A stretch of 64,000 nucleotides of DNA from an uncultured Rhodocyclaceae bacterium (GCA_934271525.1 CAKQRL010000001.1:184314-248313), one strand, 5' to 3'; positions 1-59,097 are shown, counted from the first letter of the stretch. The notes: generated from the letters alone by a model not told the origin. Numbers and translations are program-made.

Positions 1-181
1 CAATGCTCACATTGTTGCCAACACAAACCGAAGGTGAAAAATCGTCATTGGGGGTGAATTGCAAACCCAAATTGGTAAAAGAATTTTCGCCCAAAACAAA
101 ACCTAGGCGATTTAAATAAACCTTGCGCACCACGGCATCGCCGTAATAAAAGGCAAGCATTTTGACAAAACGCATCGGCAT
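1..181 (-). CDS. hypothetical protein, N-terminal fragment running off the window start; a possible longer form starts at ATG 269-267 if the C tract length differs
   Basis: Minus-strand ORF from ATG at 181-179 (MPMRFVKMLAFYYGDAVVRKVYLNRLGF...) stays open to position 1. An upstream ATG at 269-267 has a GGAG Shine-Dalgarno 6 nt before it and overlaps the stop of the upstream gene (TAAATG). It is 88 nt from the 181 ATG, so it is out of frame at the current C12. Confidence 0.4.
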   Translation of the reverse strand, partial: MPMRFVKMLAFYYGDAVVRKVYLNRLGFVLGENSFTNLGLQFTPNDDFSPSVCVGNNVSI

Positions 182-269: not shown

Positions 270-1409
270 TTAACGCTCCGCGTGCAAAGTCAGCAAGGTA
301 ATTTCAGAAGGCACAAAAAAGCGCACGGAAAAACCGCTCCAAAGGCCAGTGCCGCGGCTAACATAAAGTTGCATTGTTTGAGAATTTTCAGTAGAAACAT
401 TGTAATGGCCGGCAACAAAGCCATCATTGAATGCCGCAACAATGGGTTGCAAGAAAAACATCAAACCGCCGTGCGTGTGGCCAGAGAGTTGCAAATCAAT
501 GCCGGCTAGCGCATTGTTTACCGCACCACGCGGTTGATGCGCCAATAGAATTTTAAAGGTTTTGGGCTCAATGTTTTTTAATGCTTGGTGAATATCGGGC
601 TTTGTGCCGCCAAAGCGCCCTTGGCTTGGGTCGGGCGTGCCAATAATCGCCAATTTTGCTTGGTTGATATTTAAAACGCGGTGTTCGTTATCCAACATTT
701 GAATTGGCGTTTTTTTGAAAAAATTGAGCCATTCCATCGCGCCTGCGTAATATTCGTGATTGCCCGTTACGCCAAAAACGCCATAGCGTGCGCGCAAATC
801 GTAAAAGGGCGCGACTTCGGATTCTAATTGTGCAACAGGCGCATCAACATAATCGCCTGTTAAAAGTATTAAATCCGGGTTTTGCGCGTTGGCGCGCGCC
901 ACAACTTCGGCAAGCCACGCTTTGTTTAATAATTTGTGAATATGCGTGTCGGTGATTTGAATAATTTTAAAACCGTTTAAATCAGGCGGTAGATTTTTAA
1001 AAGTTAAATCAACATGGCGAATGTTTGGCACACTAATGGCGGAAACGCCACTATAAAAACCTAAAATTAAAGCGGTAATAAAAAACAAAACCGCATTTTT
1101 TGTTTGTTTATGCCAAGAAAATGGGCGTTTGAATATTTTAAAAATAATTAAAATAACATCGCGCAAAATAATCATAAACAACAAAATTAAAACCGACCCC
1201 ATTAAACTTTCGGTTATAAACAAAAGGCTTTTGGGCAATGCGGGGTTAAAAAAATCACCAGCTAAAAAATAATAAATGGCATATTTGGAGAGCATTACCA
1301 AAATAACCATTGAAAATAAAAGTTTGGTTAAACGTGTGGATTGAAGTGGGTAAATAAACCGCCAAAAAATTAAAAGAAAAACAAGAAGGGATGGAATCAG
1401 TGTGAACAT
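270..1409 (-). CDS. membrane-anchored calcineurin-like metallophosphoesterase
   Basis: N-terminal hydrophobic segments followed by phosphoesterase motifs (ITDTH, GDYVD, GNHEY, GHTH). Confidence 0.75.
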   Translation of the reverse strand: MFTLIPSLLVFLLIFWRFIYPLQSTRLTKLLFSMVILVMLSKYAIYYFLAGDFFNPALPKSLLFITESLMGSVLILLFMIILRDVILIIFKIFKRPFSWHKQTKNAVLFFITALILGFYSGVSAISVPNIRHVDLTFKNLPPDLNGFKIIQITDTHIHKLLNKAWLAEVVARANAQNPDLILLTGDYVDAPVAQLESEVAPFYDLRARYGVFGVTGNHEYYAGAMEWLNFFKKTPIQMLDNEHRVLNINQAKLAIIGTPDPSQGRFGGTKPDIHQALKNIEPKTFKILLAHQPRGAVNNALAGIDLQLSGHTHGGLMFFLQPIVAAFNDGFVAGHYNVSTENSQTMQLYVSRGTGLWSGFSVRFFVPSEITLLTLHAER

Positions 1410-1450: not shown

Positions 1451-2326
1451 TTAAATTTGCGTTAAGGATTTTAATAAGGCGGCATTATCCGCCCAACCGT
1501 GCTTGACCTTTACCCAAACTTCCAAATAAACCTTGATGCCGAATAATCGCTCCAAATCACGCCGAGCGGTAGTTGCAATGTGTTTTAATTTGTTACCATT
1601 TTTGCCGATTAACATCGCCTTGTGGTTGTCGCGCTCAACCCAGACTGCCGCAAAAATGCGGGCGAGTTTTTCTGTTTCTTCAAATTTTTCTATTTCCACC
1701 GCACAGCCATAAGGCAATTCATCGCCCAAAAAGCGAAAGATTTTTTCTCTGATAAATTCCGCTGCCAAAAAACGCATACTTTTGTCGGTGATGGTTGATT
1801 CTTCAAAAAACAAAAAATCGTGCGGCAAAAACGTTTGGGCAACATTTAACAACGGCGCACTTTCTTTTTGCGAAATGGCGGCAATCGGCACAATGGCGGC
1901 AAAGTTGAAATGTTCTTGGCATTTTTTTATAAAAGGCAACAAGGTGTTTTTGTTTTTTAAACGGTCAATTTTGTTAATTGCCAAAATCACTGGTTTTTCT
2001 TTGGGCAAATAGGGCAAAAGGGCAGAATCTTTGTCATCAAATGTTCCGGCTTCAATAATAAAAATCACCACATCAACTTCAACAAGCGTGTTTTTAACAT
2101 TTTGATTCATCCCGCGGTAGAGCGCATTTTGAAAACGGTTTTGAAAGCCGGGCGTGTCCATAAACACAAACTGCGCGGCATTCGTTGTTAAAACGCCCAA
2201 AATGGTGGCGCGGGTGGTTTGCGCCTTGCGCGAGGTTATGCTGATTTTCTCCCCAATGAGTTGGTTCAAAAGCGTGGATTTGCCAACATTCGGTTTGCCA
2301 ACCAATGCCAAAGTGCCTGAACGCAT
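1451..2326 (-). CDS. era: GTPase Era
   Basis: G1 motif GKPNVGKSTLLN, DTPG, NKID, a C-terminal KH domain, about 290 aa. Confidence 0.9.
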   Translation of the reverse strand: MRSGTLALVGKPNVGKSTLLNQLIGEKISITSRKAQTTRATILGVLTTNAAQFVFMDTPGFQNRFQNALYRGMNQNVKNTLVEVDVVIFIIEAGTFDDKDSALLPYLPKEKPVILAINKIDRLKNKNTLLPFIKKCQEHFNFAAIVPIAAISQKESAPLLNVAQTFLPHDFLFFEESTITDKSMRFLAAEFIREKIFRFLGDELPYGCAVEIEKFEETEKLARIFAAVWVERDNHKAMLIGKNGNKLKHIATTARRDLERLFGIKVYLEVWVKVKHGWADNAALLKSLTQI

Positions 2327-2968
2327 TTACATTCCTAATGATTTTAAAAGCTCGTTGTGATTTTCCGCGGTTTTCTTTTTGTGGTTTTTTTTGGGCAAAG
2401 GCTGGGCGGCAGGGGATTTTTGCAGTGGAATAAAGCTAACATCATCCATTGCCAATTCCACGTAAAACACGTGGTTGTTGCCGGTGTAAAAGGAAATGCG
2501 GCGCGCTTGCGGATGGTCTAAATTGGTATCGACTCGCAACATCACTTCCTTATTCAACACCAACATTTTGGGTTGGCTTTGCGTGATATTGGTGTGCAAA
2601 TCGGCTTCAATGCGGCGCGTGAAGTCGCCCACCATTTGGTTTAACAATTCGCCCATCACGTTTGCCACTTCTGCTGCCGTGTGTGAATGCGCCAACTCGT
2701 TGTTTGGAAAACCCATGTTGGAGAGATATTTGCTGTAAAGCTCCATTGCCGCATCGGCTGAAAAATTGATGACAACCAAACCCGAAAAACCGCCATCAAA
2801 TAACACAAAAGAGGCAATATCCGGTTTTAAGCAGGTTTTTTGAATCACTTGAACCATTGGCGAATAGCGCACGCAGTCGTTGGTGGCGGTGTTTAAAACA
2901 TTGGTTACCGATTCGCACAAATTCAACAAAACGTCTTCCACACCGCGAACGGCAGAATTATTGGGCAT
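2327..2968 (-). CDS. hypothetical protein, possibly CheX-like, co-transcribed between the dynamin-like GTPase and era
   Basis: ORF abuts the era start (stop at 2327, era start at 2326). Likely start is MPNNSAVRG. Weak resemblance to CheC/CheX-type motifs (EVANVMGELLNQMVGD). Function uncertain. Confidence 0.4.
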   Translation of the reverse strand: MPNNSAVRGVEDVLLNLCESVTNVLNTATNDCVRYSPMVQVIQKTCLKPDIASFVLFDGGFSGLVVINFSADAAMELYSKYLSNMGFPNNELAHSHTAAEVANVMGELLNQMVGDFTRRIEADLHTNITQSQPKMLVLNKEVMLRVDTNLDHPQARRISFYTGNNHVFYVELAMDDVSFIPLQKSPAAQPLPKKNHKKKTAENHNELLKSLGM

Positions 2969-2972
2969 TGTT

Positions 2973-4961
2973 TTATCCTTTCTCACTTTCCAAACTTGGA
3001 CGAAATAACGCAATGATACGCCGACTCATCTTGTGAAATTCTTCAATTTTTTGTTCAGTTTCTTTGCAACGCGCATGCACATCGTTTAAGCGTTCTTCCA
3101 AGGAATTGGTTGCTTTGTGAATGCGAGATAGGGCTTCAACTCTGCGTTCCAACTGCTGTTCATATTCCCGCACCTGCGCTTCCAAAGGAATGATGATGCT
3201 ATCCAACCACACGGCGCAATCGCTGTTGGTTTTTTCAACCACATGCCGAACGCTCAATGTGACTTCTTCAAAAAAACGTTGGGTAACTTTTCGTTTGTCT
3301 TGGGTTAAAAGACTCAAGGTTGAATTGGTATGTTTGGCGCACCACAAGTGCAAACGCCCCACTTCTTTTTCGCAACGGCGCAAATCAAAAGCGGCAGGTG
3401 GTGGAATTTGTAAGCCGTATTCTTTGGCGAATTTTTCGTAAGCGCTGGTAATGAGCGCGTGGATTTTTTTAATCTCTTCTTCTGCCGCCCAAAGCACATC
3501 CAACACGCGCCCGAAGTAAACTTCCATTGCGCCGGCTAAATGCTTGGAAAATGCGCCACTCAACATCACTTTTCTGGTTGTTTGCGTCAATTGCCGCAAT
3601 TTTTCCACATCCAAATTGCTTTGCAAATGGCGCACGCGGTCGGCAAAAACCTTGCGCATGGCATCCAAATAATTCACACTTTCGGCAAATTTTTTGCGTT
3701 CAAATTGTATGCGGTTGAGCATATAAGTAACGGCATTTTTGTTTTTGCCGCTTAATTCTTCCAATTCAAAGCATTGTTCTTTGAAATTATCTAAGCGAGA
3801 TGCCAACACGCCTTGAATAAAACCGAAGATATCGTTTAATTCCGCCTGCGCATTACTTTTGACCAAATCGTATTGGTCGGGCAAAAGCGAGTTGGAAAGC
3901 GTATTTTCTAATTCTTTTAAGCGCGAACGGGCAAGCAGTTGGGCATCGTTTTTAACCTTGGCAACCAAGGCTTTGTGCGCTGAGACGGCAAAAATTTGCG
4001 TTGGTGGAATTTCCAAAATCTGCGCGCAGTTGGCGGCTTGTTGTGCGATGATTTTGTTGATTTCCTCTTCTGTTTTGAGTTCGTCCCACAAGCTATCAAT
4101 TTTGTTTAAAACAACAATTTTTCCGGCATGACCAGTTTTGGTTTGTGCGCAAATATGCTCGCGCCACACGGTTAAATCCGATTGTGTAACGCCTGCGTCA
4201 GCTGCCAAAACAAAAAGCGTGGCGTGCGCCGAGGGCAACAAAGACAAAGTCAATTCAGGTTCAGCGCCAATGGCATTCAAACCGGGCGTGTCCAAAATCA
4301 CCAACCCTTGGCGAAGTAATGGATGCGGAAAATTAATCAAAGCGTGCCGCCAACGCGGAATTTCCACTTGGTTGTTTTCATCAATTTGAAATAGCTTATT
4401 TGAAGTGTTGTTGGCATCATCCCCGATATCAAAACCCAAACGGCGCGCTTCATCCACCGGCACGCGAATGGTTTCTTGCACGTGTTGCAGAGCGGCGGAT
4501 AAAGATTGCGCAGAATCAATATTGATTCCAATAAAATGCCAAGCGTCTTTTTGCTGGCGATAATCGCTCACATTGCCGTCTGTGGCGCGGGTTTGAATAG
4601 GCAAAAGTTCCACGCCGTGCGGTTTTTTAACGTCAAAAAATAATTCCGTTGGGCACATTGTTGTGCGGCCGGCGGAAGACGGCAAAATGCGACTGCCGTA
4701 ATCGGAAAAGAAAATGGCGTTAATCAACTCCGATTTGCCGCGCGAAAACTCCGCCACAAAGGCAATCATCAATCGGTCGGCGCGCAGGCGCGCCAAGAGA
4801 TTTTTTAAGCGTTCTTCAATTTGCGCATCTGATAAGCCATTTTCTGCCAAGCGTTCGCGAAAAATTTCAATGCGGGAAGTCAAGGCGCCGCGCCATTCGG
4901 TATATTCGTCAAATTTTTTTGAGAGCGACATCATTGATAAGCGTGAAGATTTTTTTTTCAT
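2973..4961 (-). CDS. bacterial dynamin-like GTPase
   Basis: 662 aa. N-terminal GTPase motifs (FSRGKSELINAIF = G1, DTPG, NKID) followed by long coiled-coil-like helical regions. Size and architecture fit the BDLP/CrfC/LeoA class. Confidence 0.7.
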   Translation of the reverse strand: MKKKSSRLSMMSLSKKFDEYTEWRGALTSRIEIFRERLAENGLSDAQIEERLKNLLARLRADRLMIAFVAEFSRGKSELINAIFFSDYGSRILPSSAGRTTMCPTELFFDVKKPHGVELLPIQTRATDGNVSDYRQQKDAWHFIGINIDSAQSLSAALQHVQETIRVPVDEARRLGFDIGDDANNTSNKLFQIDENNQVEIPRWRHALINFPHPLLRQGLVILDTPGLNAIGAEPELTLSLLPSAHATLFVLAADAGVTQSDLTVWREHICAQTKTGHAGKIVVLNKIDSLWDELKTEEEINKIIAQQAANCAQILEIPPTQIFAVSAHKALVAKVKNDAQLLARSRLKELENTLSNSLLPDQYDLVKSNAQAELNDIFGFIQGVLASRLDNFKEQCFELEELSGKNKNAVTYMLNRIQFERKKFAESVNYLDAMRKVFADRVRHLQSNLDVEKLRQLTQTTRKVMLSGAFSKHLAGAMEVYFGRVLDVLWAAEEEIKKIHALITSAYEKFAKEYGLQIPPPAAFDLRRCEKEVGRLHLWCAKHTNSTLSLLTQDKRKVTQRFFEEVTLSVRHVVEKTNSDCAVWLDSIIIPLEAQVREYEQQLERRVEALSRIHKATNSLEERLNDVHARCKETEQKIEEFHKMSRRIIALFRPSLESEKG

Positions 4962-4981
4962 TATTTGTTATTTTATGGTGA

Positions 4982-5029
4982 TTTTCCACGGTAAACGCCA
5001 AAATTTTTTGGCGTTTACCGTGGATTTTT
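4982..5029. repeat. palindromic repeat pair (TTTTCCACGGTAAACGCC-AAAATTTTTTG-GCGTTTACCGTGGATTTTTTT), terminator-like hairpin
   Basis: Perfect 16-nt inverted arms plus a T-run, abutting the tatC stop codon. Confidence 0.9.
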
Positions 5030-5752
5030 TTATTCCTTTTCTTTATTTTCTAAAAAACGGGCGCAAAATAAACCGATTTCGTAGAGCAAACACATCGGAA
5101 TAGCCAAAGCAAGTTGGGAAACCACATCGGGCGGGGTGATGACCGCCGCAAGCACAAAAGCAAAAACAATGAAATAAGCGCGCCATTGTTTCAATTTTTC
5201 CACATTCAACACATTGATTTTAACCAACACCAACAGCGCCACAGGCACTTCAAATGCCAAGCCAAAAGCGATGAACATTGTGATAACAAATGACAAATAC
5301 GCTTCAATGTCTGGCGCGGGCGTGATGCTTGCCGGCGCAAAGGCGTTGATGAATTTGAAAACTTGCCCAAAAACCAAAAAATAGCAAAAAGCCATTCCCA
5401 AAAAGAAAAGCAAAGTGCTTGATATCACAAGCGGCAAGCCCAAACGTTTTTCGTGTTGATAAAGCCCCGGCGCAATAAATGCCCACGCTTGCCACAAAAC
5501 AAAGGGCAAAGCCACAACAAACGCCGCCAAGGCGCTTACTTTGAGCGGAATTAAAAATGGCGTGACCACGCCAATGGCGAGCATTTTGGAGCCTTGAGGT
5601 AGCGCTGCGGTAAGCGGCGCGGCAAGAAAATCATAAATGGCAGAAGGTCCCGGATAAATGCACAACACCAACAAGGCAATTAAAACCGCCGCTAGCGATT
5701 TGAGCAAGCGGTCGCGCAATTCAATCAAATGGGAGATAAGCGATTCGTCCAT
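5030..5752 (-). CDS. tatC: Sec-independent protein translocase TatC
   Basis: 240 aa polytopic membrane protein with TatC signature. Positioned after tatA and tatB. Confidence 0.9.
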   Translation of the reverse strand: MDESLISHLIELRDRLLKSLAAVLIALLVLCIYPGPSAIYDFLAAPLTAALPQGSKMLAIGVVTPFLIPLKVSALAAFVVALPFVLWQAWAFIAPGLYQHEKRLGLPLVISSTLLFFLGMAFCYFLVFGQVFKFINAFAPASITPAPDIEAYLSFVITMFIAFGLAFEVPVALLVLVKINVLNVEKLKQWRAYFIVFAFVLAAVITPPDVVSQLALAIPMCLLYEIGLFCARFLENKEKE

Positions 5753-6072
5753 TATTTTTTCTGCGGCGGTCCATAAAAGTCGGGCGGCAAGTTTTCTAAT
5801 GTTTCTTGGATTTCAGCCACGGTTTGCCGAGTTTGCGCCGTGATTTTTTCTGTGATTTGTTGGCTTTGGTTTTCTAAATCCGCTTTGATTTGATGCACTT
5901 CTTGAAGTGGTATTTCTTTTGTCAAATCGTCTTTAAAATGCTGCGCCATTTTTTGAAAGCGCCCGATGATAACGCCTAATGTGCGTGCCACTTTGGGCAA
6001 ACGCTCGGGACCAACCACAATCAAGGCGACTATGGCAATGACCACAAGTTCAGAAAAAGCAATATCAAACAT
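5752..6072 (-). CDS. tatB: twin-arginine translocase subunit TatB
   Basis: MFDIAFSELVVIAIVALIVVGPERLP N-terminus typical of TatA/B. Second gene of the tatABC block. Confidence 0.8.
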   Translation of the reverse strand: MFDIAFSELVVIAIVALIVVGPERLPKVARTLGVIIGRFQKMAQHFKDDLTKEIPLQEVHQIKADLENQSQQITEKITAQTRQTVAEIQETLENLPPDFYGPPQKK

Positions 6073-6093
6073 TCTTTTTCAAAAAAATCACGG

Positions 6094-6140
6094 GTTGACC
6101 GTGGAACATTGCAGTTTTAAAAAAATCCACGGTAAACGCC
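6094..6140. repeat. palindromic repeat pair (GTTGACCGTGGAA ... TCCACGGTAAACGCC)
   Basis: Inverted arms between tatB and tatA. Confidence 0.85.
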
Positions 6141-6148
6141 GAATTTTT

Positions 6149-6334
6149 TTACGATTTTTCATCGCTAATTTGCTTTTCTGCTGGTTTTTCAGAAGCGCCT
6201 TCTGCCATTCCCTCTTTTAAACCTTTGATGGCAGAACCCAAATCACGCCCAATGTTTGGCAATTTTTTGGTGCCGAAAATCAAGACCACAACCAACAAAA
6301 CAATTAACCAATGCCAAATGGAAAAAGTGCCCAT
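6149..6334 (-). CDS. tatA: twin-arginine translocase subunit TatA
   Basis: 61 aa, [26 protein letters not shown]. Confidence 0.85.
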
Positions 6335-18331: not shown

Positions 18332-19279
18332 ATGGTGGCACAAGTCAATAGCGCACTGCCTAACGGCACACGTCTGGAAAATTATGTAATCGTCAAACAA
18401 CTCTCATTAGGCGGGTTTTCTATCGTCTATTTGGCGCGGGATTTCAAAACCCGCGATGAAGTGGTTATCAAAGAGTTCTTGCCGAATAATTTAGCCTTGC
18501 GAATGGCAGGGGAAATGCGCCCGCAGGTCAATGAAATCAACCGCCCGCTATTTCGTTACGGCTTAAAATGCTTTTTTGAAGAAGGCAAGGCTTTGGTGAA
18601 ATTGAATCACCCGAACGTAATACGCGTTTTGAATTTTTTCCGCGCCAACGGCACGGTTTATATTGTGATGAATTATGAAAAAGGTTTTTCATTGCATCAT
18701 TACATCAAAAAACAACCAGTGGATGAAGCCTTTTTGCGCGATGTTTTTACGCGTTTGTTAGATGGTTTGCACGAAGTGCATGCGAATCATCTTTTGCATT
18801 TGGATATTAAGCCAGCCAACATTTATTTGCGCGAAGACCAATCGCCTGTGCTATTGGATTTTGGCGCCGCGCGGCAAATGTTGGAAAAAGCACCATTGGA
18901 ATTAAAACCAATGTATACGCCCGGTTTTGCTTCTCCCGAGCATTATGGCGATCGTTCCAAGTTGGGCACGTGGAGCGATATTTATAGCATTGGCGCATCG
19001 CTTTACAACTGCTTATCCAAAGTTGTGCCGCCTGCGGCGGATGAGCGCCAAAAAAATGACACCTTAATGCCTGCAATGCGCCGTTGGGAAGGACAATACA
19101 CCGATCGCTTTTTGGAGATTATTGATTGGTGTATGAATTTGAATTATTTGTATCGGCCGCAAACCGTGGCTGTTTTGCAAAAAGCCTTGTTGGATTTGCC
19201 CGAATTGCCGAAAAAAGGCGAAATTCAATGGGGCGAACTCTGGCGCAGCATTCGTAAAACTTTGAATACGGAATTGTAA
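18332..19279 (+). CDS. Hanks-type serine/threonine protein kinase
   Basis: Kinase subdomains: VIKEF (Lys), HLDIKPANI catalytic loop, DFG, a PE-containing activation segment. 315 aa, catalytic domain only. Confidence 0.8.
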   Translation: MVAQVNSALPNGTRLENYVIVKQLSLGGFSIVYLARDFKTRDEVVIKEFLPNNLALRMAGEMRPQVNEINRPLFRYGLKCFFEEGKALVKLNHPNVIRVLNFFRANGTVYIVMNYEKGFSLHHYIKKQPVDEAFLRDVFTRLLDGLHEVHANHLLHLDIKPANIYLREDQSPVLLDFGAARQMLEKAPLELKPMYTPGFASPEHYGDRSKLGTWSDIYSIGASLYNCLSKVVPPAADERQKNDTLMPAMRRWEGQYTDRFLEIIDWCMNLNYLYRPQTVAVLQKALLDLPELPKKGEIQWGELWRSIRKTLNTEL

Positions 19280-20244
19280 TGAGCTTTGAAATCTTCCAAG
19301 AAAGTCGACTCGGTCAACGCAAAAATAACGAAGACCGCGTGGGTTATTGTTATTCCAAAAATTCCGTGTTGATGGTAGTGGCGGACGGCATGGGCGGCTA
19401 TGAACACGGCGAAGTGGCTTCTCAAATTACGCTTCAAACCTTAACAGACGTTTTTCGCCAAAAGGTTTTAAAAGGTTTTAGGGATCCAAAAGCCTTTTTG
19501 TTGGATGGCATTTTGGCTGCGCATCGGGCAATTACCGAATATGCGCTTGATCACTTCACCGATTTTCCGCGTTCAACCGTGGTTGTTTGTTTGATTCATA
19601 AAGAAAAAGCCTATTGGGCGCACGCGGGCGATTCGCGTTTGTATGTTTTGCGCAACGGGCAGGTTTTCTTTAAAACGCACGACCATTGCCGAGTCAATGA
19701 TTTATTTGAAGCTGGGCAAATCACCGCCGAAGAAGCGCACAATCACCCCGACCGAAACAAAATTTACAGTTGTTTGGGCGGCACCATTACGCCGATTATT
19801 TCCATTTCCGACCCATTATTGATGAAAGCAGGCGATATTATTCTGCTTGCCACAGACGGGCTTTGGGGCAATGTTGATGACGCATCAATGATTAACGCCT
19901 TTGGCACGCAGCCCTTTACCGATTCAATGAGTCATTTGTTGGATTTGGCAGAACAAGGTGGCGGCAAGTTTTGCGATAACTTATCAACCGTGGCGCTTTT
20001 GTGGGATGGCGAGGTCTCTGAATACAGCATTACGCCTGAGGACTTGGCGAAAAATGAAGTGAAGATGGAAAAAGCCGAGCCTTATGCCCAAGATGTTGCC
20101 GCCGTGGAAGAAAGCAACAATGAAGCACCACCCGAGGTTGCGCGCGAAATTGAAGACGTGTTTGCCGATTTGCGCGCTGTTTTGGAAAAAAATCAGCCCA
20201 AAAAGCCCAAGAAAAACAACAAGATTTTCTACCCACGGCGCTAA
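19279..20244 (+). CDS. PP2C-family Ser/Thr protein phosphatase
   Basis: MVVADGMGG and DGLWG metal-binding motifs. Start overlaps the kinase stop (ATGA). Confidence 0.8.
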   Translation: MSFEIFQESRLGQRKNNEDRVGYCYSKNSVLMVVADGMGGYEHGEVASQITLQTLTDVFRQKVLKGFRDPKAFLLDGILAAHRAITEYALDHFTDFPRSTVVVCLIHKEKAYWAHAGDSRLYVLRNGQVFFKTHDHCRVNDLFEAGQITAEEAHNHPDRNKIYSCLGGTITPIISISDPLLMKAGDIILLATDGLWGNVDDASMINAFGTQPFTDSMSHLLDLAEQGGGKFCDNLSTVALLWDGEVSEYSITPEDLAKNEVKMEKAEPYAQDVAAVEESNNEAPPEVAREIEDVFADLRAVLEKNQPKKPKKNNKIFYPRR

Positions 20245-22322: not shown

Positions 22323-24194
22323 TTAAGCAGATTCAAGGCGAAGGTTGGTGGGCGTGCGTTGGTTTTGGTCGGCGAGCAATTCTTTGATATCTAAAATCAA
22401 CACGATTTTGCCGTTAGAAAGTGTGGTTACTCCCGCAATGCCTTTGGGACGAAAACCTTCCAAAGATTTCACCACGGCATCGTCCCGCCCAACAAAGCTA
22501 TCCACGCTCAAAATAAAACTGCGGTCTGCCGTTTGCACAAAAACGCCGTATTCCGGGTAGCGTTCTTGCTCCCACCCCAAAAGAGAAACGAGCGAAATAA
22601 CAGGCAACACTTCGCCGCGCACCACCAAAGTTTCTTTGCCGCCTACTTCTTGAATGCTGTCGCGAAAAATTGGCAAAATTTCGCGCACCAGCGACAAGGG
22701 CAGGGCAAAGGGTTGGTCGCCCAACTGCACAATTAAAACAGGCAAAATGGCAAGCGTTAAAGGCAACGAAATTACAAAAACCGAGCCTTTGCCCAACTCC
22801 GAACGGATTTCAACCGAACCGTTCAATTTTTGAATGTTGGTTTTAACAACATCCATCCCCACGCCGCGCCCAGAAACGCTGGATATTTGCGTTTTGGTGG
22901 AAAATCCGGGTAAGAAAATTAAATTCAAACTTTGGCGGTCGTCCAAAGTGTTGGCTTCTTCCTCAGAAATTAAACCTTTTTCAATGGCTTTGGCGCGGAT
23001 GGTCTCAGGGCTCATCCCTTTGCCGTCATCGGCAATCATCAACACAATGTGGTCGCCTTCTTGGCGGGCTTCCAAGCGCACCAAGCTTTTTTCAGGTTTG
23101 CCTGATGCGCGGCGCTCTTCGGGCGTTTCAACACCGTGGTCGACGGCGTTCCTAACCAAGTGAATCAACGGATCCGCCAAGTCTTCAATCATCGTTTTGT
23201 CGACTTCGGTTTCTTCACCCGCCATCACCAATTCAATGTTTTTGCCCATTTGGCGCGCCAAATCCCGCGCGATGCGTGGGTATTTTTGAAAGAGTCTGCC
23301 AATGGGTTGCATGCGGGTTTTCATCACGGAATTTTGCAAATCCGAGACCAACAAATCCAGTTGATTGACCGCTTGATCCAATGCGTGCAAAGTTTCGGTA
23401 TCGTTTTTGCCAGCCAAAATATCGCTTCTTAAACTGGTGAGCCGATTTTTGGTCAAACCAATTTCGCCCGACAAATTCAAAACTTGGTCAAGCCGCGCAG
23501 TATCCACCCGAATGGTTGTTTCGCGGTTGGATTCAGAGGCGCGCCGCGCCGCACCATTTGCGGCAGGCGCGGCGGATTTTTTGGTTGGTGCGGTTGCCGC
23601 CGCCGCAGGCGTGGGAACGCTGGCGGACGCAGGCGTTCCTGTTGTTTGGGCTGGCGTGGCATTGTTCGCTGTGATGGCGGCGTGAACGGCATTCCAATCG
23701 GGCTCGTTTGAGTTGCCCGAAGCAGGTGCAGGCGTAGTAGAAGTTGCCGCAGGTGGTGTTGGCGCGGCAGATGCGCTAGCCGTAGCCGCCGCAGGCGCGG
23801 CTTTGCCTGCCACGGCGGCTTGCAAAGCCGCCAAAATGTTGGGGGCGGCGGGTTTTGGTTGTATGCTTTGTTGGAGTTCATCAAACATGGCGTGCACGCC
23901 TTGGGTTGCCGCCATAATGGTGTCCATCAACTCGGGGGTAAGTGATAGCTCGCCGTTCCTCAATTTGTCAAAAATGTTTTCCGTTAGCTGGCACAAGGTA
24001 ACAAGTTCTGTGGCGTTCAAAAAGCCTGCACCGCCTTTGATGGTGTGGAAACCGCGGAAAATGTCGTTCAACAAATTGTGGTCGTCCGGGGCTTTTTCCA
24101 AGTCCACAAGTTTGTTATCCACATCGCCCAACAGGTCATAGGCTTCTTGCAGAAAGTCCTGCAACAATTCTTCCATGCCGGCAAAATCGCTCAT
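22323..24194 (-). CDS. cheA: chemotaxis histidine kinase CheA
   Basis: HPt domain (FRGFHTIKGGAGF), Ala/Pro/Thr-rich linker, dimerisation and HATPase domains (GRGVGMDVV), C-terminal CheW-like domain. Confidence 0.9.
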   Translation of the reverse strand: MSDFAGMEELLQDFLQEAYDLLGDVDNKLVDLEKAPDDHNLLNDIFRGFHTIKGGAGFLNATELVTLCQLTENIFDKLRNGELSLTPELMDTIMAATQGVHAMFDELQQSIQPKPAAPNILAALQAAVAGKAAPAAATASASAAPTPPAATSTTPAPASGNSNEPDWNAVHAAITANNATPAQTTGTPASASVPTPAAAATAPTKKSAAPAANGAARRASESNRETTIRVDTARLDQVLNLSGEIGLTKNRLTSLRSDILAGKNDTETLHALDQAVNQLDLLVSDLQNSVMKTRMQPIGRLFQKYPRIARDLARQMGKNIELVMAGEETEVDKTMIEDLADPLIHLVRNAVDHGVETPEERRASGKPEKSLVRLEARQEGDHIVLMIADDGKGMSPETIRAKAIEKGLISEEEANTLDDRQSLNLIFLPGFSTKTQISSVSGRGVGMDVVKTNIQKLNGSVEIRSELGKGSVFVISLPLTLAILPVLIVQLGDQPFALPLSLVREILPIFRDSIQEVGGKETLVVRGEVLPVISLVSLLGWEQERYPEYGVFVQTADRSFILSVDSFVGRDDAVVKSLEGFRPKGIAGVTTLSNGKIVLILDIKELLADQNQRTPTNLRLESA

Positions 24195-24206
24195 GTTTGT
24201 TCTCCC

Positions 24207-24965
24207 TTAAAAGCCAAGGCTATCCAAGAGCTCATCGACTTGTTCTTGATTCACCACCACATCCGTTCGGCCTTGTGCGTTGATGACAGGTCCTTGCAAC
24301 ATACTGCTGACCTCTTCGGTTTTCTTCGTTTCTGGCACAACTTGCAACAAGACGCTCATCAAACTTGTTTCTAGATCTTGGGTAACTTCAATGATTTTTT
24401 TAATCACCTGACCGGTTAAATCTTGAAAATCTTGCGCCATTACAATTTCCATCAACTGCGCGTGCAACATGGCGTTTTTGGTTTTGAGGTCTTCGTTTAA
24501 GAATTTTTTGGTATCCAGCGCCAACTGCCGCAAACCGTTTGAATCCAAGCGATTCGCAAATAAATCATCCCAACGCTTGGATAGCGCCGCCGCAGAATTA
24601 TTCACTTGTTCTAATAACGGATTGGCAATATCCGTGGCGTTTAAAACGCGCCCTGCCGCTTGTTCGGTAAGATTGGCCACATACGCCAAGCGCGCTTTGG
24701 TATCGGGCATAGCCGACATATTTTTTTCTAACATTTTGTCGTAACCCAACTGCCCCAAAGTATCGTGCAAAGAACGGGTCATTTGCCCCAGTTGATTAAA
24801 AACGTTTTCTTGGGTATTAGACCAATTTTCCACGGTAGACGCGGAATTTTTTTGAGAATTGGAAGAAGCGCTCGCGGCAGTTGCAGCAGGCTCAGCGGGA
24901 TGATTGTTGGCAGCAATGGAATCAAATAAGGCTTCTAATTCGTCAGAATCGTTGGTGGCAGTCAT
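24207..24965 (-). CDS. cheZ: CheY-P phosphatase CheZ
   Basis: C-terminal ...DQEQVDELLDSLGF matches the CheZ C-terminal CheY-binding peptide. Sits between cheY and cheA. Confidence 0.8.
   Translation of the reverse strand: MTATNDSDELEALFDSIAANNHPAEPAATAASASSNSQKNSASTVENWSNTQENVFNQLGQMTRSLHDTLGQLGYDKMLEKNMSAMPDTKARLAYVANLTEQAAGRVLNATDIANPLLEQVNNSAAALSKRWDDLFANRLDSNGLRQLALDTKKFLNEDLKTKNAMLHAQLMEIVMAQDFQDLTGQVIKKIIEVTQDLETSLMSVLLQVVPETKKTEEVSSMLQGPVINAQGRTDVVVNQEQVDELLDSLGF
24829..24845. repeat. single repeat arm (TTTTCCACGGTAGACG) inside cheZ coding sequence
   Basis: Encodes ...STVENW... in CheZ. Confidence 0.6.
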
Positions 24966-24977
24966 TGTGGTTGCTCC

Positions 24978-25370
24978 TTATTTGCCCATTTTTTCAAAAA
25001 TTTTGTTGAGTTTTTCGGACATCGTGCCTGCTGTAAAAGGCTTGACAATGTAGCCGCTGGCACCCGCTTGCGCAGCCGCAATGATGTTTTCTTTTTTGGC
25101 TTCCGCCGTTACCATCAAAACGGGCAGATTTTGCAAAGCGGGCGTTGCGCGGATATTTTGCAAAAGGGTTAAACCATCCATATTCGGCATATTCCAGTCG
25201 GTCACCACAAAATCAAAGCCGCCTGCGGAGAGTTTTTCCAACGCCACTTTGCCGTCTTCGGCTTCGTCTACGTTGGTGTAACCCAATTCTTTCAACAAGT
25301 TGCGCACAATGCGGCGCATGGTGGAAAAATCATCCACCACCAAAAATTTAGTTTGGGGATTTGCGGCCAT
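24978..25370 (-). CDS. cheY: chemotaxis response regulator CheY
   Basis: 130 aa receiver: [19 protein letters not shown], conserved Lys near the C-terminus. Confidence 0.9.
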
Positions 25371-25397
25371 TTTGCCTTACTCCTTTTCTATTATTTT

Positions 25398-26342
25398 TTA
25401 ACGCTCCAACAATGGGCGCAAGGTATCTGCCAGTGCCACGGCATCAAATTTTGCCACATAGGCATCCACGCCAACGTTTTTGCCCATTGACCGATTTGCT
25501 TCTGATGACAAGGACGAGTGCATAATCACCGGCACGTCTTTAAAGCGTGCGTCAGCTTTGATGTTTTTGGTTAAAACATAACCGTCCATCTCCGGCATTT
25601 CGGCATCCACCAAAATCAAGCGCACTTCATCGCGCATATTGCGCCCGGTTTGTTGAACGTGCATGGCAATGGCTTGAAGGCGCGTCCAAGCTTCTTGTCC
25701 GTTGGTGGCGTGTTTGTGGCGCACGCCCAATTTATCCAACACTTCGGCAATTTTGCGCCGAGCAACAATTGAATCATCCACAAAAAACACACACGCATCG
25801 GAATCAATTTGCGCTGGTGGAATGTCGCTAATCATCGTATCGCCAAAGGCGTTGGTTAAAATTTGTTCCACATCCAAAATGGAGACCAAATTGCCGTTGT
25901 CAAGTTCAATCACAGCAGTAATCAAACATTGATTAGACGACAACACGCTTTCAGGCGCTTTAACGCGGTCCCAGTCGACTCGGATGATGCGGTCAACTTC
26001 GTTTACCAAAAAGCCAAGCGTGCGTTGCGAATATTCTGCCACCATCATTGTTTTGCCCAAACCTTCAGGCGCATCGGTAAGCTGCAAAAAGGCGGAGATG
26101 GATAAAACTGGAATGGCGTTACCGCGCAACGACACCAAACCTTCCACGCCGTGTGGCATATTCGGGGTTTTGGTGATATGCGGTGTGCGGCTGACTTCTC
26201 TGACCTTAAAAACATTAATACCAAAGATTTCCTTGGTGCCCAAGTTGAAGAGCAAAATCTCCATTTTGTTGGAGCCTGCCAAACGCGTGCGGGCATCAAC
26301 CGTTGCCAATAGATTTTTATTTTCGGTTTGTTCTTCCATCAA
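25398..26342 (-). CDS. cheV: chemotaxis protein CheV (CheW-like + receiver domain)
   Basis: N-terminal CheW-like domain (EILLFNLGTKEIFGINVFKVREV) followed by a REC domain (DAEMPEMDGYVLTKNIK). Confidence 0.8.
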   Translation of the reverse strand: MMEEQTENKNLLATVDARTRLAGSNKMEILLFNLGTKEIFGINVFKVREVSRTPHITKTPNMPHGVEGLVSLRGNAIPVLSISAFLQLTDAPEGLGKTMMVAEYSQRTLGFLVNEVDRIIRVDWDRVKAPESVLSSNQCLITAVIELDNGNLVSILDVEQILTNAFGDTMISDIPPAQIDSDACVFFVDDSIVARRKIAEVLDKLGVRHKHATNGQEAWTRLQAIAMHVQQTGRNMRDEVRLILVDAEMPEMDGYVLTKNIKADARFKDVPVIMHSSLSSEANRSMGKNVGVDAYVAKFDAVALADTLRPLLER

Positions 26343-26348
26343 AATCTC

Positions 26349-27311
26349 CTAGGAAATCGCCTTCAAGCGCCGTGCCAAGGTTTCAGACAAGCGCAAGGGG
26401 TCAAACTTCGGCACGTATTCATCCACGCCTACGGATTTGCCTAATTCCTGATTGGATAAGCTGGATAAGCTTGAGTGCATAATCACTGGAATGTCGTTCA
26501 AACGCGGGTCGGTTTTGATTTTTTTGGTCAAAATGTAGCCGTCCATCTCCGGCATTTCAATGTCGGTTAAAACAAGTGCCACGCTATCTCGCGCACGTTT
26601 GCCGGTGCTTTGCTCCAAGTTGGCAATTTTGTCTAATTCTTCCCAAAGCAAGCGACCGTTTGCGGCACCAACGCCTTTCACACCCATTGTCTCTAATGTT
26701 TTGGCGATTTGTTTTCGTGCCACGCTCGAGTCATCACAATAGTAAACCGTTAAATCGTGGCGGTTCAATTCTTCAACACCGCGGAAGGCAATATCGTTGT
26801 CAATGGAAGTTGTTTCAGACAAAACTTTTTCTACGTCCATCAGCATCACAAGCCGACTGTCTTCTAATTCTGTAACAGCCGTTACCAATCCACCCGTTTG
26901 CGCCGTCAACATCTCTGGCGGCACGCACATTTTGGACCAATCCAAACGCAAAATGGTATCCACGCCTTCCACCAAAAAACCCTGCGTGTGGCCGGCGTAT
27001 TCGGTAACAATTAAAATCTCGCGCGGAGTCGTTACCGGAATGCCTGCGTATTTGGCCAAATCAATCACTGGCACCAACACACCACGCAAACTCACCATTC
27101 CTTCTACCGCCGCAGGCATATCGGGAGCGGCGGTAATCGTCGGGGTGCGCATGACTTCGCGCACTTTAAAAACATTGATTCCATAAGTTTCTCGGCGATT
27201 GGTGCGGGGGTCGACCCCCAAATAAAAGAGCAATATCTCCAGCTTATTCGTGCCCGCCAACTTGGTGCGGGCGTCGATACTTTTGAGCAAATCCGACATG
27301 CCAATCCCCAA
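26349..27311 (-). CDS. cheV: chemotaxis protein CheV, second tandem paralog
   Basis: Same two-domain architecture (EILLFYLG...GINVFKVREV; DIEMPEMDGYILTKKIK). Confidence 0.8.
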   Translation of the reverse strand: MGIGMSDLLKSIDARTKLAGTNKLEILLFYLGVDPRTNRRETYGINVFKVREVMRTPTITAAPDMPAAVEGMVSLRGVLVPVIDLAKYAGIPVTTPREILIVTEYAGHTQGFLVEGVDTILRLDWSKMCVPPEMLTAQTGGLVTAVTELEDSRLVMLMDVEKVLSETTSIDNDIAFRGVEELNRHDLTVYYCDDSSVARKQIAKTLETMGVKGVGAANGRLLWEELDKIANLEQSTGKRARDSVALVLTDIEMPEMDGYILTKKIKTDPRLNDIPVIMHSSLSSLSNQELGKSVGVDEYVPKFDPLRLSETLARRLKAIS

Positions 27312-45832: not shown

Positions 45833-48800
45833 GTGGAAAATTCCAAAAATTTGCCAAACTTGCCGATTTTTGAAAAGGAATCGGCGATTGTTGCCGCATT
45901 AGAAAAAAATCAAGTCGTTATTGTTGCCGGCGCCACAGGTTCGGGCAAATCCACGCAACTTGCCAAAATTGTTTTAAAAGCAGGCTTGGGGCAGAAAATT
46001 GCCCACACGCAACCGCGCCGCTTGGCGGCAAGAACCTTAGCCGCTCGGGTTGCTGATGAATTAAATATGCCAATAGGCAGCGGCGTGGGTTTGGAATTGC
46101 GTTTTGTAAATGAAACAAGCGAGAATGATTGTATTACTTTTTTAACCGATGGTTTATTACTTTCTAAAATAACGCGCGATAAACTTTTAAATCAATACGA
46201 TACCATTATTATTGACGAAGCGCACGAGCGGAGTTTGAATATTGATTTTCTCTTGGCGTATTTAAAAATTTTAATTCAAAAACGCAAAGATTTAAAAATA
46301 ATTATTACCAGCGCCACGATTGATACCGATAAATTTTCAAAACATTTTAATAATGCACCGATTATTGAAGTATCAGGCAAGTTATTCCCCGTAAATATTC
46401 ATTATTTAAATGAAGAAATGGCGAATGTGGATTTGTTAGAAAAAACAGCCGATATTGTAGAAAATTTAAATGGTAAAAAAGGCGATATTTTAATTTTTTT
46501 AGGGGGTGAAAAGGATATTGCAGAAACAATTAAAATATTGCGCAAACGCCCAAGTTTGAAAAACATGGAATTTTTGCCGCTTTATGCGCGATTAGCGCCA
46601 CAAAAACAAGCGCGGGTTTTTGAATTATCAAAAACACAACGCGTGATTTTGGCAACCAACGTGGCCGAAACTTCGCTCACTGTGCCGAATATTCGCTTTG
46701 TGATTGATTGGGGTTTGGCAAGAATCAAACGTTACGCTTACCACCAAAGAATTGAACGCCTGCCGATTGAAAAAATTTCGCAAGCCTCGGCAAATCAACG
46801 CGCAGGGCGCTGCGGGCGACTTTCAAGCGGCGAATGTTTTCGGCTTTATACCCAAAGCGATTTTGAAACTCGCCCCGCTTTTACGCCGCCCGAGATTTTG
46901 CGCGCAAATTTGGCGAATGTGGTTTTAAAAATGCGGGCATTGCATTTTAATAATACGGATTTATTTTTGGAATCTCCGCCTCAAAAAGCGTGGAGCGATG
47001 CGGAAAAAACCTTAAAAGAATTGAATGCTTTAAATGAAAATAACGGTTTAACAAAAATAGGAAAACGTTTAGCCGATTTGCCCATTGACGCGCGGCTTGG
47101 ACGCATTTTATTAGCAGCGGAACATTTAAATGTTTTAAATGAAATGCTAATTATTGTTGCTGCTATTTCTGTGCCTAATTTATTAGATGAAAATCCACGG
47201 TCAACTGAATATTTTTTTGAAAAAAATAATCCGTTTACCGTGGAAAAACAGCGTTCTGTTTTTATGGATTATTTATCATTATGGAATAAAAGAAAAAACA
47301 ACCATTCGCCAAAGTTTAAAGAATGGAGTGAGATTTATTTTCAACTCAAAAAAATATTTCAACCGAAAAAATCTGTTTTAAAATCTGCCCCAGATTTTTA
47401 TAAAAAAATACACGGCGCGATTTTAACCGGTTTTTTGGGTTTTATCGGCTTTAAAAGCGATGAAAAAGGTTTATACCAAGGCGTTAAAAATCTGCGTTTT
47501 TATTTGCACCCGAAATTAACAATTAAAAATCCACCGCGTTGGATTGTGGCAAACGAGTTGGTTGAAACAAGCCGACTTTTTGCCAGCGCCTTTGCGCAAA
47601 TTGAACCCGAATGGATTGAATCAGCGGCTTATAACTTAATTCAAAAACAATTTTTGGAACCGCATTGGGAAAAAAAATCGCAAGCCGTCATTGCTTATGA
47701 AAAAATTACGCTTTGGGGTTTAACGATTATTCCCAAACGGCGTGTTTTGTTTGGAGAAAAAGATAAAGCATTGTCGCGCCAAATATTTATTCAAAATGCC
47801 TTGGTACAAATGGATTTGCCTGTGGCGTTTTTAAACCGATGGGCATTTATTCAAAATAATTTAAAAATTATTCAAAAAATAAAAGAAATGGAAATAAAAC
47901 AACGGCGGCAAGATATTTTAATTGATGATAGTTTGATTTTTGATTTTTACAATGCGCATATTGATGCCAATGTTTATGATTTGAAAAGTTTTGAAGTGTG
48001 GTTGAAACATAACCCCAAAACGCTATTTTTATCGCAAAAAGATTTGATGAATCACCAAGCCAATGGCATAACCAATGAAAAATTTCCATCCTTTTTAAAA
48101 ATTGGTGAAAAAGCATATCCCTTGATTTATAACTTTGCGCCCAATGATGCAATGGATGGCGTTACTATTCAAATACCGCTATTGGATTTAAAAAACATTC
48201 CCTCCAAATGTTTGGAATGGTTGGTGCCCGGACTCATTAAAAACAAAGTATTGTTTTTGCTCAAAAGCTTGCCGCAAAAATACCGCGTGAAGATTCAACC
48301 ATTAGAAACTTTTACTGATGATTTTTTGGCAAAAGAAGATTTAAATTTAAACGATGGCATTGTTTTTAATCTTATTCAATTCATGCGCACAAAATACGCT
48401 TTTGAATCGCGAGGGTGGGCATTAAATGAACAACTTTTTCGCACAGAGAACCTGCCGCATTATTTTTTGATGAATGTTGAATTATTAGATGAAAATAAAA
48501 ATCGCTTGGCACTCTCACGCAATATTGATGATTTAAAAACACAATTTAAAGAATCCGCCAAAAAAGTGTTTGTTGCGCATATTCCAAAAGAAGAAACACA
48601 AGATTTTAAAAATTGGGATTTTGGCGATTTGGATGATTTGATTGAGTTAACCATCGCTGGCGAAAATGTGATTGGTTATCCAGCTTTGTGTTTTGAAAAA
48701 AATCGTTTGTTTTTAAACGTTTTTGATGATTTGGATTCTGCTACTTTGAATCATAAAATCGGTTTGTTGGAATTATTTCAGCGCGTTTTGAATGTTTATA

Positions 48801-49429
48801 AAAAAAGTTTGGAAAAAAACTGTTCTAATAGCCTTTTAATGTTGTTTATGCCTTTGGGCACGGCAGAAGAATTTAAAAAACAATGGTTGGCGCAGGTTTT
48901 TACAGAATGTTGCTTAAATGAACCATTGCCCAAAACCAAGGCTGCTTTTTTAAAACGCGTGGATAAAGCCAAACCCCGCTTAAACCTTGTGGGGCAAGAG
49001 ATGGCAAGGTTGCTCACAGAGATTTTGGAATTGTGGCGCAACCAAAAATTAAACAATGTTAAGGCTTTTCCAAACGCTTTGGAAGATTTGAATCGCCAAC
49101 GTGATTTTTTAATCCACAAACATTTTATTATTCAAAACTCTTGGGCGCGTTTAAAACAATTTCCGCGTTATTTAAAAGCAATGGATTGGCGCATTGAAAA
49201 AATTCGGCAAAACCCCGCACGGGATTTTCAAAATCAAAAAGCGATTGCTTATTTTTTAAATCTTTATTTGAGAGAAATTAAAAAACACCCGCAAAATCTT
49301 GCTTTAAAAGATTTTTATTTTTTGATTGAAGAATTGCGGATTTCTTTATTTTCAGATGGCAAATTAAAAACGCCAATGCCAATTTCAATTAAACGATTAG
49401 AAAAAGTTTGGGCTTCTTTAAAATTTTAA
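45833..49429 (+). CDS. hrpA: ATP-dependent RNA helicase HrpA (N-terminally short relative to E. coli)
   Basis: DEAH-box helicase: Walker A AGATGSGKST, DEAHER, SAT, a HA2/OB region and a long C-terminal domain. The track start (GTG 45833) lies inside a repeat arm, so the exact start is uncertain. It begins only 54 bp from the divergent thiC start. Confidence 0.85.
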   Translation: MENSKNLPNLPIFEKESAIVAALEKNQVVIVAGATGSGKSTQLAKIVLKAGLGQKIAHTQPRRLAARTLAARVADELNMPIGSGVGLELRFVNETSENDCITFLTDGLLLSKITRDKLLNQYDTIIIDEAHERSLNIDFLLAYLKILIQKRKDLKIIITSATIDTDKFSKHFNNAPIIEVSGKLFPVNIHYLNEEMANVDLLEKTADIVENLNGKKGDILIFLGGEKDIAETIKILRKRPSLKNMEFLPLYARLAPQKQARVFELSKTQRVILATNVAETSLTVPNIRFVIDWGLARIKRYAYHQRIERLPIEKISQASANQRAGRCGRLSSGECFRLYTQSDFETRPAFTPPEILRANLANVVLKMRALHFNNTDLFLESPPQKAWSDAEKTLKELNALNENNGLTKIGKRLADLPIDARLGRILLAAEHLNVLNEMLIIVAAISVPNLLDENPRSTEYFFEKNNPFTVEKQRSVFMDYLSLWNKRKNNHSPKFKEWSEIYFQLKKIFQPKKSVLKSAPDFYKKIHGAILTGFLGFIGFKSDEKGLYQGVKNLRFYLHPKLTIKNPPRWIVANELVETSRLFASAFAQIEPEWIESAAYNLIQKQFLEPHWEKKSQAVIAYEKITLWGLTIIPKRRVLFGEKDKALSRQIFIQNALVQMDLPVAFLNRWAFIQNNLKIIQKIKEMEIKQRRQDILIDDSLIFDFYNAHIDANVYDLKSFEVWLKHNPKTLFLSQKDLMNHQANGITNEKFPSFLKIGEKAYPLIYNFAPNDAMDGVTIQIPLLDLKNIPSKCLEWLVPGLIKNKVLFLLKSLPQKYRVKIQPLETFTDDFLAKEDLNLNDGIVFNLIQFMRTKYAFESRGWALNEQLFRTENLPHYFLMNVELLDENKNRLALSRNIDDLKTQFKESAKKVFVAHIPKEETQDFKNWDFGDLDDLIELTIAGENVIGYPALCFEKNRLFLNVFDDLDSATLNHKIGLLELFQRVLNVYKKSLEKNCSNSLLMLFMPLGTAEEFKKQWLAQVFTECCLNEPLPKTKAAFLKRVDKAKPRLNLVGQEMARLLTEILELWRNQKLNNVKAFPNALEDLNRQRDFLIHKHFIIQNSWARLKQFPRYLKAMDWRIEKIRQNPARDFQNQKAIAYFLNLYLREIKKHPQNLALKDFYFLIEELRISLFSDGKLKTPMPISIKRLEKVWASLKF
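47200..47249. repeat. complete palindromic repeat pair embedded in frame inside hrpA coding sequence
   Basis: AAATCCACGGTCAAC-TGAATATTTTTTTGAAAAAAATAATCC-GTTTACCGTGGAAAAAC is translated as ...NPRSTEYFFEKNNPFTVEKQ... within HrpA. Confidence 0.8.
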
Positions 49430-49440
49430 ATTGCAAAAAA

Positions 49441-49505: not shown

Positions 49506-49507
49506 TA

Positions 49508-58544: not shown

Positions 58545-58556
58545 CCACAACCCACT

Positions 58557-59091: not shown

Positions 59092-59097
59092 AAGAAA

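Follow-up and report, generated by a model that had tools for sequence, protein, structure and literature searches.

A conserved dynamin-like GTPase gene next to a CheX-like DUF3334 gene and era: known protein families in a clade-specific gene order

We analyzed a 64,000-nucleotide stretch of DNA from an uncultured Rhodocyclaceae bacterium (GCA_934271525.1, CAKQRL010000001.1:184314-248313), hereafter the window, and focused on three consecutive genes of its minus strand. The first, dyn (2973..4931), encodes a dynamin-like GTPase of 652 amino acids plus stop. The second (2327..2968) encodes a DUF3334/CheX-like protein of 213 amino acids plus stop, and the third is era (1451..2326), encoding the GTPase Era (291 amino acids; equivalog NF000908, 343.7 bits). 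The DUF3334 ATG (2968) is located 4 nucleotides past the dyn stop, with a Shine-Dalgarno sequence (AAGGA) within the last dyn codons, and the era ATG (2326) follows the TAA stop of the DUF3334 gene without any gap. A preliminary description of this locus, made from the sequence alone, had reported the tight coupling of a 213-amino-acid gene to the GTPase gene, which our analysis bears out. It had also read the two genes as a dedicated module occupying the place of rnc upstream of era. We find instead members of known protein families in an operon arrangement peculiar to one clade. This is a local reshuffle, and not a dedicated machine made of a dynamin and its partner, because dyn and DUF3334 adjoin only in one small lineage.

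The dyn product was characterized by Pfam, homologue alignment, profile search of PDB sequences, an AlphaFold2 model and fold search. Pfam Dynamin_N was matched with an expectation value (E) of 3e-16 (60.3 bits, for a cut-off of 27). With the family profile, the Nostoc bacterial dynamin-like protein (BDLP) was retrieved from the PDB sequences at E 1.3e-11, together with SynDLP, mitofusin 1/2 and IniA. The AlphaFold2 model (predicted local distance difference test, pLDDT, 81) displayed helices at residues 3-51, a GTPase domain at about 54-336 and an all-helical stalk at 338-643; in this predicted structure the G domain is thus surrounded by an N- and C-terminal helical neck/trunk. The best fold match was again BDLP (E 9e-19), followed by IniA, Campylobacter dynamin-like proteins (DLP) 1/2, mitofusins, SynDLP and LeoA (8e-10). 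For the full-length matches (BDLP, IniA and Campylobacter DLP1/2), template-modelling (TM) scores were only about 0.4, because the conformations differ. Pfam, PDB profile and fold all point to dynamin rather than to a non-dynamin GTPase family.

The GTPase motifs G1, DTPG and NKID were found where the preliminary description had put them. In 55 sequences of the family (mean column identity 79%), the G1/P-loop AEFSRGKS (residues 60-67; 4731..4754, minus strand as for all features of these genes) is invariant, as are G2/switch-1 GRTTMCPTE (residues 88-96; 4644..4670), G3 DTPG (residues 214-217; 4281..4292) and G4 NKID (residues 276-279; 4095..4106). The stalk also contains a conserved non-helical loop, YGLQIPPPAAFDL (residues 505-517; 3381..3419), in which G506, L507, P512 and F515 are invariant; this GLxIxxPxxF loop is a possible candidate for a lipid-interacting tip. 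Altogether, judged by sequence and predicted structure, the 652-amino-acid protein truly belongs to the dynamin superfamily, as a GTPase of the BDLP/mitofusin class. It shares with Nostoc punctiforme BDLP (PDB 2J68, 2J69, 2W6D) the Dynamin_N G1-G4 motifs, the N-terminal helices and the long all-helical stalk, and IniA, Campylobacter DLP1/2, SynDLP and the mitofusins complete the set of best profile and fold matches. However, identity to this class is only 14-17%, and no obvious hydrophobic paddle was seen in dyn. Most bacterial DLP genes are described as paired in operons (PMC6104087); dyn differs in being a single gene with no second dynamin next to it. By analogy with the class, GTP-dependent G-domain dimerization and stalk rearrangement would drive homotypic assembly of the protein on the cytoplasmic membrane, and this assembly would result in tethering, fusion, fission or repair without a partner dynamin.

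The gene is shorter than initially described. The open reading frame (ORF) of the preliminary description, 2973-4961 on the minus strand (662 amino acids, beginning MKKK through a poly-A run), is present in the window. However, alignment of 16 homologues places the family start at M11 of this ORF (MSLS...), where all 15 sequences aligned with it begin, and public gene calls of this same protein give 653 amino acids. The upstream ATG and its A9 run (4950..4961) are contained in an 11-nucleotide insertion particular to the window; DNA alignment showed that this insertion is lacking in the 94% (L002), 82% (L003) and 78% (L089) identical relatives. The insertion overlaps a -10-like hexamer, and this hexamer overlaps the ATG at 4961. 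Owing to the window-specific insertion, the overlap with the -10-like hexamer and the family start at M11, the A9 run is most likely 5' leader and not coding sequence. Thus dyn most likely starts at ATG 4931 and covers 2973-4931 (652 amino acids). Of what had been observed initially, the genes, their motifs and their coupling were confirmed, while the start codon and the length of dyn had to be revised.

For the small protein, the preliminary description had given a size of about 213 amino acids and no function. The size is right, and the protein can now be assigned to a family, with a CheX fold and a CheZ-like tail. Pfam DUF3334 is its primary family (E 1.6e-89, 300 bits), and Pfam CheX was passed marginally (29.8 bits for a gathering score of 27). 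Comparison of the DUF3334 model (pLDDT 75) with known structures by Foldseek retrieved CheX from Desulfovibrio, Thermotoga, Vibrio and Borrelia (3hm4, 1squ, 1xko, 6vpw and 3hzh) with E between 2.6e-11 and 2e-8 (about 1e-10 to 1e-11 for 3hm4, 1squ and 6vpw) and TM-scores of 0.84-0.88 normalized to the target. When the DUF3334 alignment served as a profile against PDB sequences, nothing meaningful was retrieved because the profile was too narrow; it was the single-sequence phmmer search and the fold search that gave the CheX link. In the phmmer (HMMER) alignment, GELlN of DUF3334 faces GELgN of T. maritima CheX, whose catalytic residues are E96 and N99 (PMC12887009). The corresponding residues, E107-L-L-N110 (2639..2650), match the catalytic E-x2-N of the CheC/CheX/FliY phosphatases. 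Together with P133 (2570-2572), E107 and N110 are invariant in 58 DUF3334 sequences (mean column identity 71%), in the arrangement N103-x3-E107-x2-N110-x22-P133; the active-site consensus of CheC, CheX and FliY is D/S-x3-E-x2-N-x21/22-P (PMC12887009). The family is compact, with 181 representatives at 50% clustering and no domain fusions.

Compared with CheX of T. maritima (1SQU/1XKO), B. burgdorferi (3HZH) and V. vulnificus (6VPW), DUF3334 displays the same predicted fold, with E-x2-N on a long helix and the proline, at an identity of 13-20%. It is also about 60 residues longer than these structures of roughly 150 amino acids, the additional part being a disordered linker and a CheZ-like C-terminal peptide. 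This tail, LLKSLGM in the window (2330..2350), is a putative CheY-docking peptide. Throughout the family the C-terminus is an invariant peptide, with the consensus DDLLKSLGM, behind a disordered and variable linker. The CheZ encoded in the window ends in DELLDSLGF and E. coli CheZ in DDLLDSLGF, so that DUF3334 and CheZ share a terminal [DE][DE]LLxSLG[FM]-COOH after a flexible linker. Six-frame translation of the window showed LL.SLG[FM] only in DUF3334 and CheZ, each time at the extreme C-terminus. DUF3334 differs from CheZ in its last residue, Met and not Phe, and outside the tail it does not resemble CheZ (Pfam CheZ was not matched). In E. coli, the C-terminal peptide of CheZ reportedly tethers CheZ to CheY (PDB 1KMI).

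A chemotaxis/flagellar gene set is found elsewhere in the window, at 22323-27311 (minus strand) and 56937-60608 (plus strand). It comprises cheA, cheZ, cheY (24978-25370), two tandem cheV genes of CheW-REC architecture, fliC (flagellin) and fliD. Therefore the organism has CheZ besides the CheX-like DUF3334. DUF3334 thus co-occurs with CheZ as does CheX in Vibrio (PMC12887009). Given the catalytic motif and the CheZ-like tail, DUF3334 is most likely a phosphatase of phosphorylated CheY (CheY-P). Its tail would tether the protein to CheY-P or to another CheY-like receiver, as the CheZ tail does, and E107 and N110 would position the water for acyl-phosphate hydrolysis. In an organism with CheY, CheA and two CheV proteins, DUF3334 would thus act as a second CheY-P phosphatase beside CheZ.

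DUF3334 might instead be a non-catalytic adaptor of CheX-fold or FliM-like type, docking at the flagellar switch or modulating Era/ribosome assembly; in that case the tight coupling of its gene to era would have a functional basis. We consider this rather unlikely. The fold does match the FliM and FliY middle domains in addition to CheX, DUF3334 is located outside che operons in other genomes, and its stop and the era start abut or overlap throughout the clade to which the window belongs. The Asn at the first motif position, discussed below, is also in keeping with an adaptor. However, both catalytic residues and the proline are invariant and aligned with the CheX active site, and a tail of CheZ type suggests that the ligand is a CheY-like receiver. 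Moreover, outside the clade DUF3334 never adjoins era (Dechloromonas, Simplicispira and metagenome loci), and the era gene of relatives sits with rnc and recO.

The genomic context of dyn in other species was assayed on the 80 best species-representative loci (42-52% identity) with 10-kb flanks. Clustering of flanking ORFs gave spurious families in high-GC genomes and was replaced by targeted tblastn. Relatives of dyn are widespread in Betaproteobacteria (at least 588 among the 600 pattern matches listed, in species-representative genomes). At none of the 80 best loci did the 10-kb flanks of dyn contain DUF3334, era or tatC. By contrast, mutM lies upstream on the same strand in 73 of them, mostly 50-470 nucleotides away, and fdx-coaD-rsmD are convergent downstream in about 50. 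In the usual setting (L001, L008-L087; 80 species), prs-ispE-lolB-TPR on one strand are followed by mutM-dyn and next by convergent fdx-coaD-rsmD; Methylophilaceae-type loci differ in having mutM 4-6.5 kb further from dyn. As far as these alignments and gene orders tell, dyn is the window's orthologue of a betaproteobacterial GTPase that is highly conserved, present in single copy and usually found just downstream of mutM. Such wide conservation and fixed housekeeping synteny set it apart from the sporadic bacterial DLPs.

The other two genes of the locus are likewise found in different surroundings outside the clade. In Dechloromonas denitrificans, dyn is at 0.56 Mb and DUF3334 at 3.4 Mb, i.e. 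2.8 Mb apart, and in Simplicispira DUF3334 lies among unrelated genes. Neither dyn nor era was present at 78 of 80 metagenomic DUF3334 loci; the remaining two, with era or a dyn remnant adjoining, belong to the clade of the window. The nearest named relatives of Era are Rhodocyclales, with Azovibrio at 62%. Azovibrio (L091) and another relative (L092) both have the canonical order lepA-lepB-DUF4845-rnc-era-recO. Compared with the canonical lepA-lepB-rnc-era-recO operon, the era gene of the window is a normal equivalog, but it has DUF3334 upstream and a metallophosphoesterase gene downstream. A tblastn search with E. coli RNase III detected no rnc in the 64-kb window, and recO is likewise not present in it. 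Thus era without rnc upstream is indeed unusual, as had been proposed, and the survey of species and metagenome loci confirms that the dyn-DUF3334-era arrangement is not order-wide.

These data bear directly on the proposal that dyn and the small protein form a dedicated two-component module comparable to crfC(yjdA)-yjcZ, now RdcA/RdcB, or to LeoABC. In that view the GTPase would take part in membrane remodelling, chromosome segregation or phage defence, being regulated or recruited by the small protein. Several features are in keeping with it: the 4-nucleotide gap and the Shine-Dalgarno sequence inside the 3' end of dyn, an adjacency kept in the 94%, 82% and 78% relatives and going back to the clade ancestor, and a weak PADLOC match to LeoBC. 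There is also a precedent in E. coli for a role in signalling: RdcA, a large dynamin-like GTPase, and RdcB, encoded by a smaller gene tightly coupled to it, are activators of the diguanylate cyclase DgcE (PMC6510439). However, the similarity to RdcA/RdcB is one of layout. Identity between dyn and RdcA is 25%, over the G domain only (E 3e-5), DUF3334 (213 amino acids, CheX fold) is unrelated to RdcB (292 amino acids; E 11), and no counterpart of DgcE activation was seen at the dyn locus. A CrfC-type clamp-binding motif was considered, but the dyn N-terminus is not conserved as Q-x-x-L-F.

The resemblance to LeoABC of enterotoxigenic E. coli and to DynA-type defence dynamins is that of a common superfamily, as illustrated by the LeoA fold match. 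PADLOC gave a weak LeoBC match (38.9 bits) over the G domain, whereas the LeoA/HP0731 model NF041922 scored 19.8 bits for a cut-off of 325, so that dyn is not a member of that family. Unlike in LeoABC, no second or split dynamin was found in the window or in its relatives, and the context of dyn is core genome: its neighbours are housekeeping genes (his, tat and era) and not a defence island. Above all, the two genes are unlinked in all 80 other species and at 78 of 80 DUF3334 loci, including the 2.8 Mb separation in Dechloromonas, and in part of the clade itself dyn was truncated, its P-loop decayed (GKS to GKF), or the gene was lost while DUF3334-era stayed. A dedicated module is therefore improbable. 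Of the initial interpretation, the dynamin class and the rnc-less era are supported, but neither the two-gene module nor the MKKK start.

Within the clade, which is of low GC and apparently Rhodocyclales-related and is the only one in which we found dyn-DUF3334-era, this order is common to the window, L002, L003 and L089. In L089, an apparent 80-amino-acid ORF (2115-2357) between dyn and DUF3334 was rejected as a scaffold-gap artefact: it contains an N run and combines, as a chimera, the N-terminus of DUF3334 with the C-terminus of dyn. A sister branch consists of L088 and of L093/L094/L096 (Era 64% identical to the window group and 72% within the branch). In L088 the order is tatC-DUF3334-era-phosphoesterase, with no dyn. 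In contrast, L093/L094 (two independent runs; 145-798) and L096 (6303-6956), from a lineage of 38-40% GC, harbor a 217-amino-acid dyn remnant upstream of DUF3334. This remnant results from an in-frame internal deletion: residues 1-172, 67-68% identical to dyn of the window, are fused to the last ~35 residues of the stalk, leaving out G3, G4 and the stalk. The L096 copy has a P-loop that has decayed further (SRGKSE to SWGKFA). The remnant is gene decay in progress. The DUF3334-era stop and start, on the other hand, abut or overlap in every clade member, across about 64% Era identity. It is most parsimonious to suppose that dyn-DUF3334-era was already present in the ancestor of the clade, and that one branch subsequently degraded and lost dyn. 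Loss or decay of dyn with DUF3334-era kept argues against an obligate partnership between the two proteins.

Since L088 has tatC-DUF3334-era without dyn, the reverse order of events was also considered, in which dyn, a mobile or defence gene, would have been acquired only recently and come to lie between tatC and DUF3334. A repeat hairpin borders the site, and a restriction-modification-like methyltransferase is found upstream of the remnant in L096. There, 3450-6153 is occupied by a 294-amino-acid ORF and by the gene of a 528-amino-acid protein bearing a DNA methyltransferase motif of NPPY type, and this stretch may be a restriction-modification insertion at the dyn site. Nevertheless, insertion of dyn was rejected: the sister lineage of L088 (L093, L096) has the in-frame remnant at the same place, 68% identical, and loss is therefore more parsimonious than gain. 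GC content of the dyn/DUF3334/era region (0.448-0.456) equals that of the surroundings (typically 0.42-0.47 in the window), and PADLOC returned only the weak and partial LeoBC match, with no strong match to a defence system. Moreover, identity of dyn to its Rhodocyclales orthologues is 51-53%, a level consistent with those of Era (62%) and DUF3334 (about 60%), and these comparable identities fit vertical descent of dyn. Recent acquisition is thus the least probable of the explanations considered, and we give it hardly any credence.

The three genes are part of a longer series on the minus strand: hisB-hisE, a HIT-family gene, tatA, tatB and tatC (5752-5030), then a hairpin, dyn, DUF3334, era and a metallophosphoesterase gene. 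The last of these (270..1409), 41 nucleotides after era, was identified as a membrane metallophosphoesterase of YaeI/LpxG-like type; the era-metallophosphoesterase order is conserved in L002 and L088. It is likely the last gene of the transcription unit. A consensus scan indicated a terminator-like hairpin with a T-run downstream of it (87..110, minus strand). The co-directional dyn, DUF3334, era and metallophosphoesterase genes probably form one operon. A sigma-70-like promoter match (TGGAAA, 17-nucleotide spacer, AATAAT; 4960..4988, minus strand) precedes dyn, at the level of consensus (9/12). Rfam and tRNA scans of the window found no RNA genes.

The tatC/dyn intergenic hairpin (4985..5024) has a perfect 18-bp stem formed by two inverted copies of a genome-wide repeat, TCCACGGTAAAC, and is also present in the relatives L002, L089 and L093. 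The core of this repeat, the 11-mer CCACGGT[A/C]AAC, mostly preceded by T and an A/T run, occurs at 55 sites in the 64 kb (with at most 1 mismatch), and a 14-mer version gave 28 matches against 0.34 expected. Although genes cover about 80% of the window, 45 of the 55 sites are outside genes. Copies often form inverted pairs around variable spacers, giving terminator-like hairpins (for example 4986/5013, 10160/10184, 22272/22299, 35410/35448, 41968/42006 and 61450/61487). The exact A-variant is frequent in L002 but rare in L088, and neither L003 nor L089 has it; the C-variant was seen in L089 and L093. By analogy, the repeat recalls Neisseriaceae DNA-uptake sequences more than a repetitive extragenic palindromic (REP) element or a miniature inverted-repeat transposable element (MITE).

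Some other features of the window also deserve mention. Ser/Thr protein kinase and PP2C phosphatase genes (18332-20244, plus strand) adjoin yicC and a MacB/FtsX-type ABC transporter. The stretch of lowest GC (0.36-0.37), at 45833-50281, contains a 1198-amino-acid HrpA-like DEAH helicase carrying DUF3418 and a 257-amino-acid ORF (49508-50281). Neither this ORF nor another one, located at 55161-55928, had a Pfam match.

Altogether, we think it probable, with some reserve, that the locus is a clade operon born from a rearrangement, which brought together the conserved dyn, a CheX-type phosphatase with a CheZ tail, and an era gene moved from rnc-era-recO. In this rearrangement era would have left the canonical operon in the clade ancestor, and would now be translationally coupled to DUF3334.

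Several observations weigh against parts of this picture. Strongly hydrophobic or transmembrane-like segments were not found in dyn (maximum Kyte-Doolittle 19-residue mean 1.35, in the GTPase core), and therefore it is family resemblance only that points to membrane binding. In DUF3334, the CheC-type motif opens with Asn (N103) in place of Asp or Ser, and in Dechloromonas, Simplicispira and the metagenome loci the gene has no che genes beside it. The case for co-transcription and for the promoter is at the level of consensus sequences, and sigma-70-like matches were no more numerous in the region than in shuffles. A full-text literature search for DUF3334 found no paper, nor did a search for BDLP with CheX or with Betaproteobacteria. 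Finally, the adjacency of dyn and DUF3334 since the clade ancestor and the ribosome-binding site inside dyn may indicate some functional coupling within the clade. In a stronger form of this idea, dyn and DUF3334 would be functionally linked in general, either by a phospho-relay gating dynamin assembly or by dyn placing a CheY-P phosphatase at the membrane or pole. Both families are Betaproteobacteria-centred and unusually conserved, in addition to being adjacent since the clade ancestor, and if such a link were true the clade operon would be the one place where it became fixed in gene order; we nevertheless consider it very unlikely.

The preliminary finding thus reduces to known families in a lineage-specific gene order, which matters little as such. 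The most useful new inference is the predicted CheX-fold and CheZ-tail architecture of DUF3334, through which the family gains a concrete, testable function, that of a CheX-fold phosphatase with a CheZ-type CheY-docking tail. This architecture is relevant to the question, raised previously (PMC12887009), of why CheX-like and CheZ phosphatases coexist in some bacteria. In one clade, era is located outside the RNase III-linked operon, and its expression there would therefore no longer be tied to rnc. Lastly, Betaproteobacteria have in dyn a very conserved and unpaired dynamin-like GTPase with a fixed place by mutM, i.e. a tractable housekeeping BDLP compared with the sporadic, paired ones.

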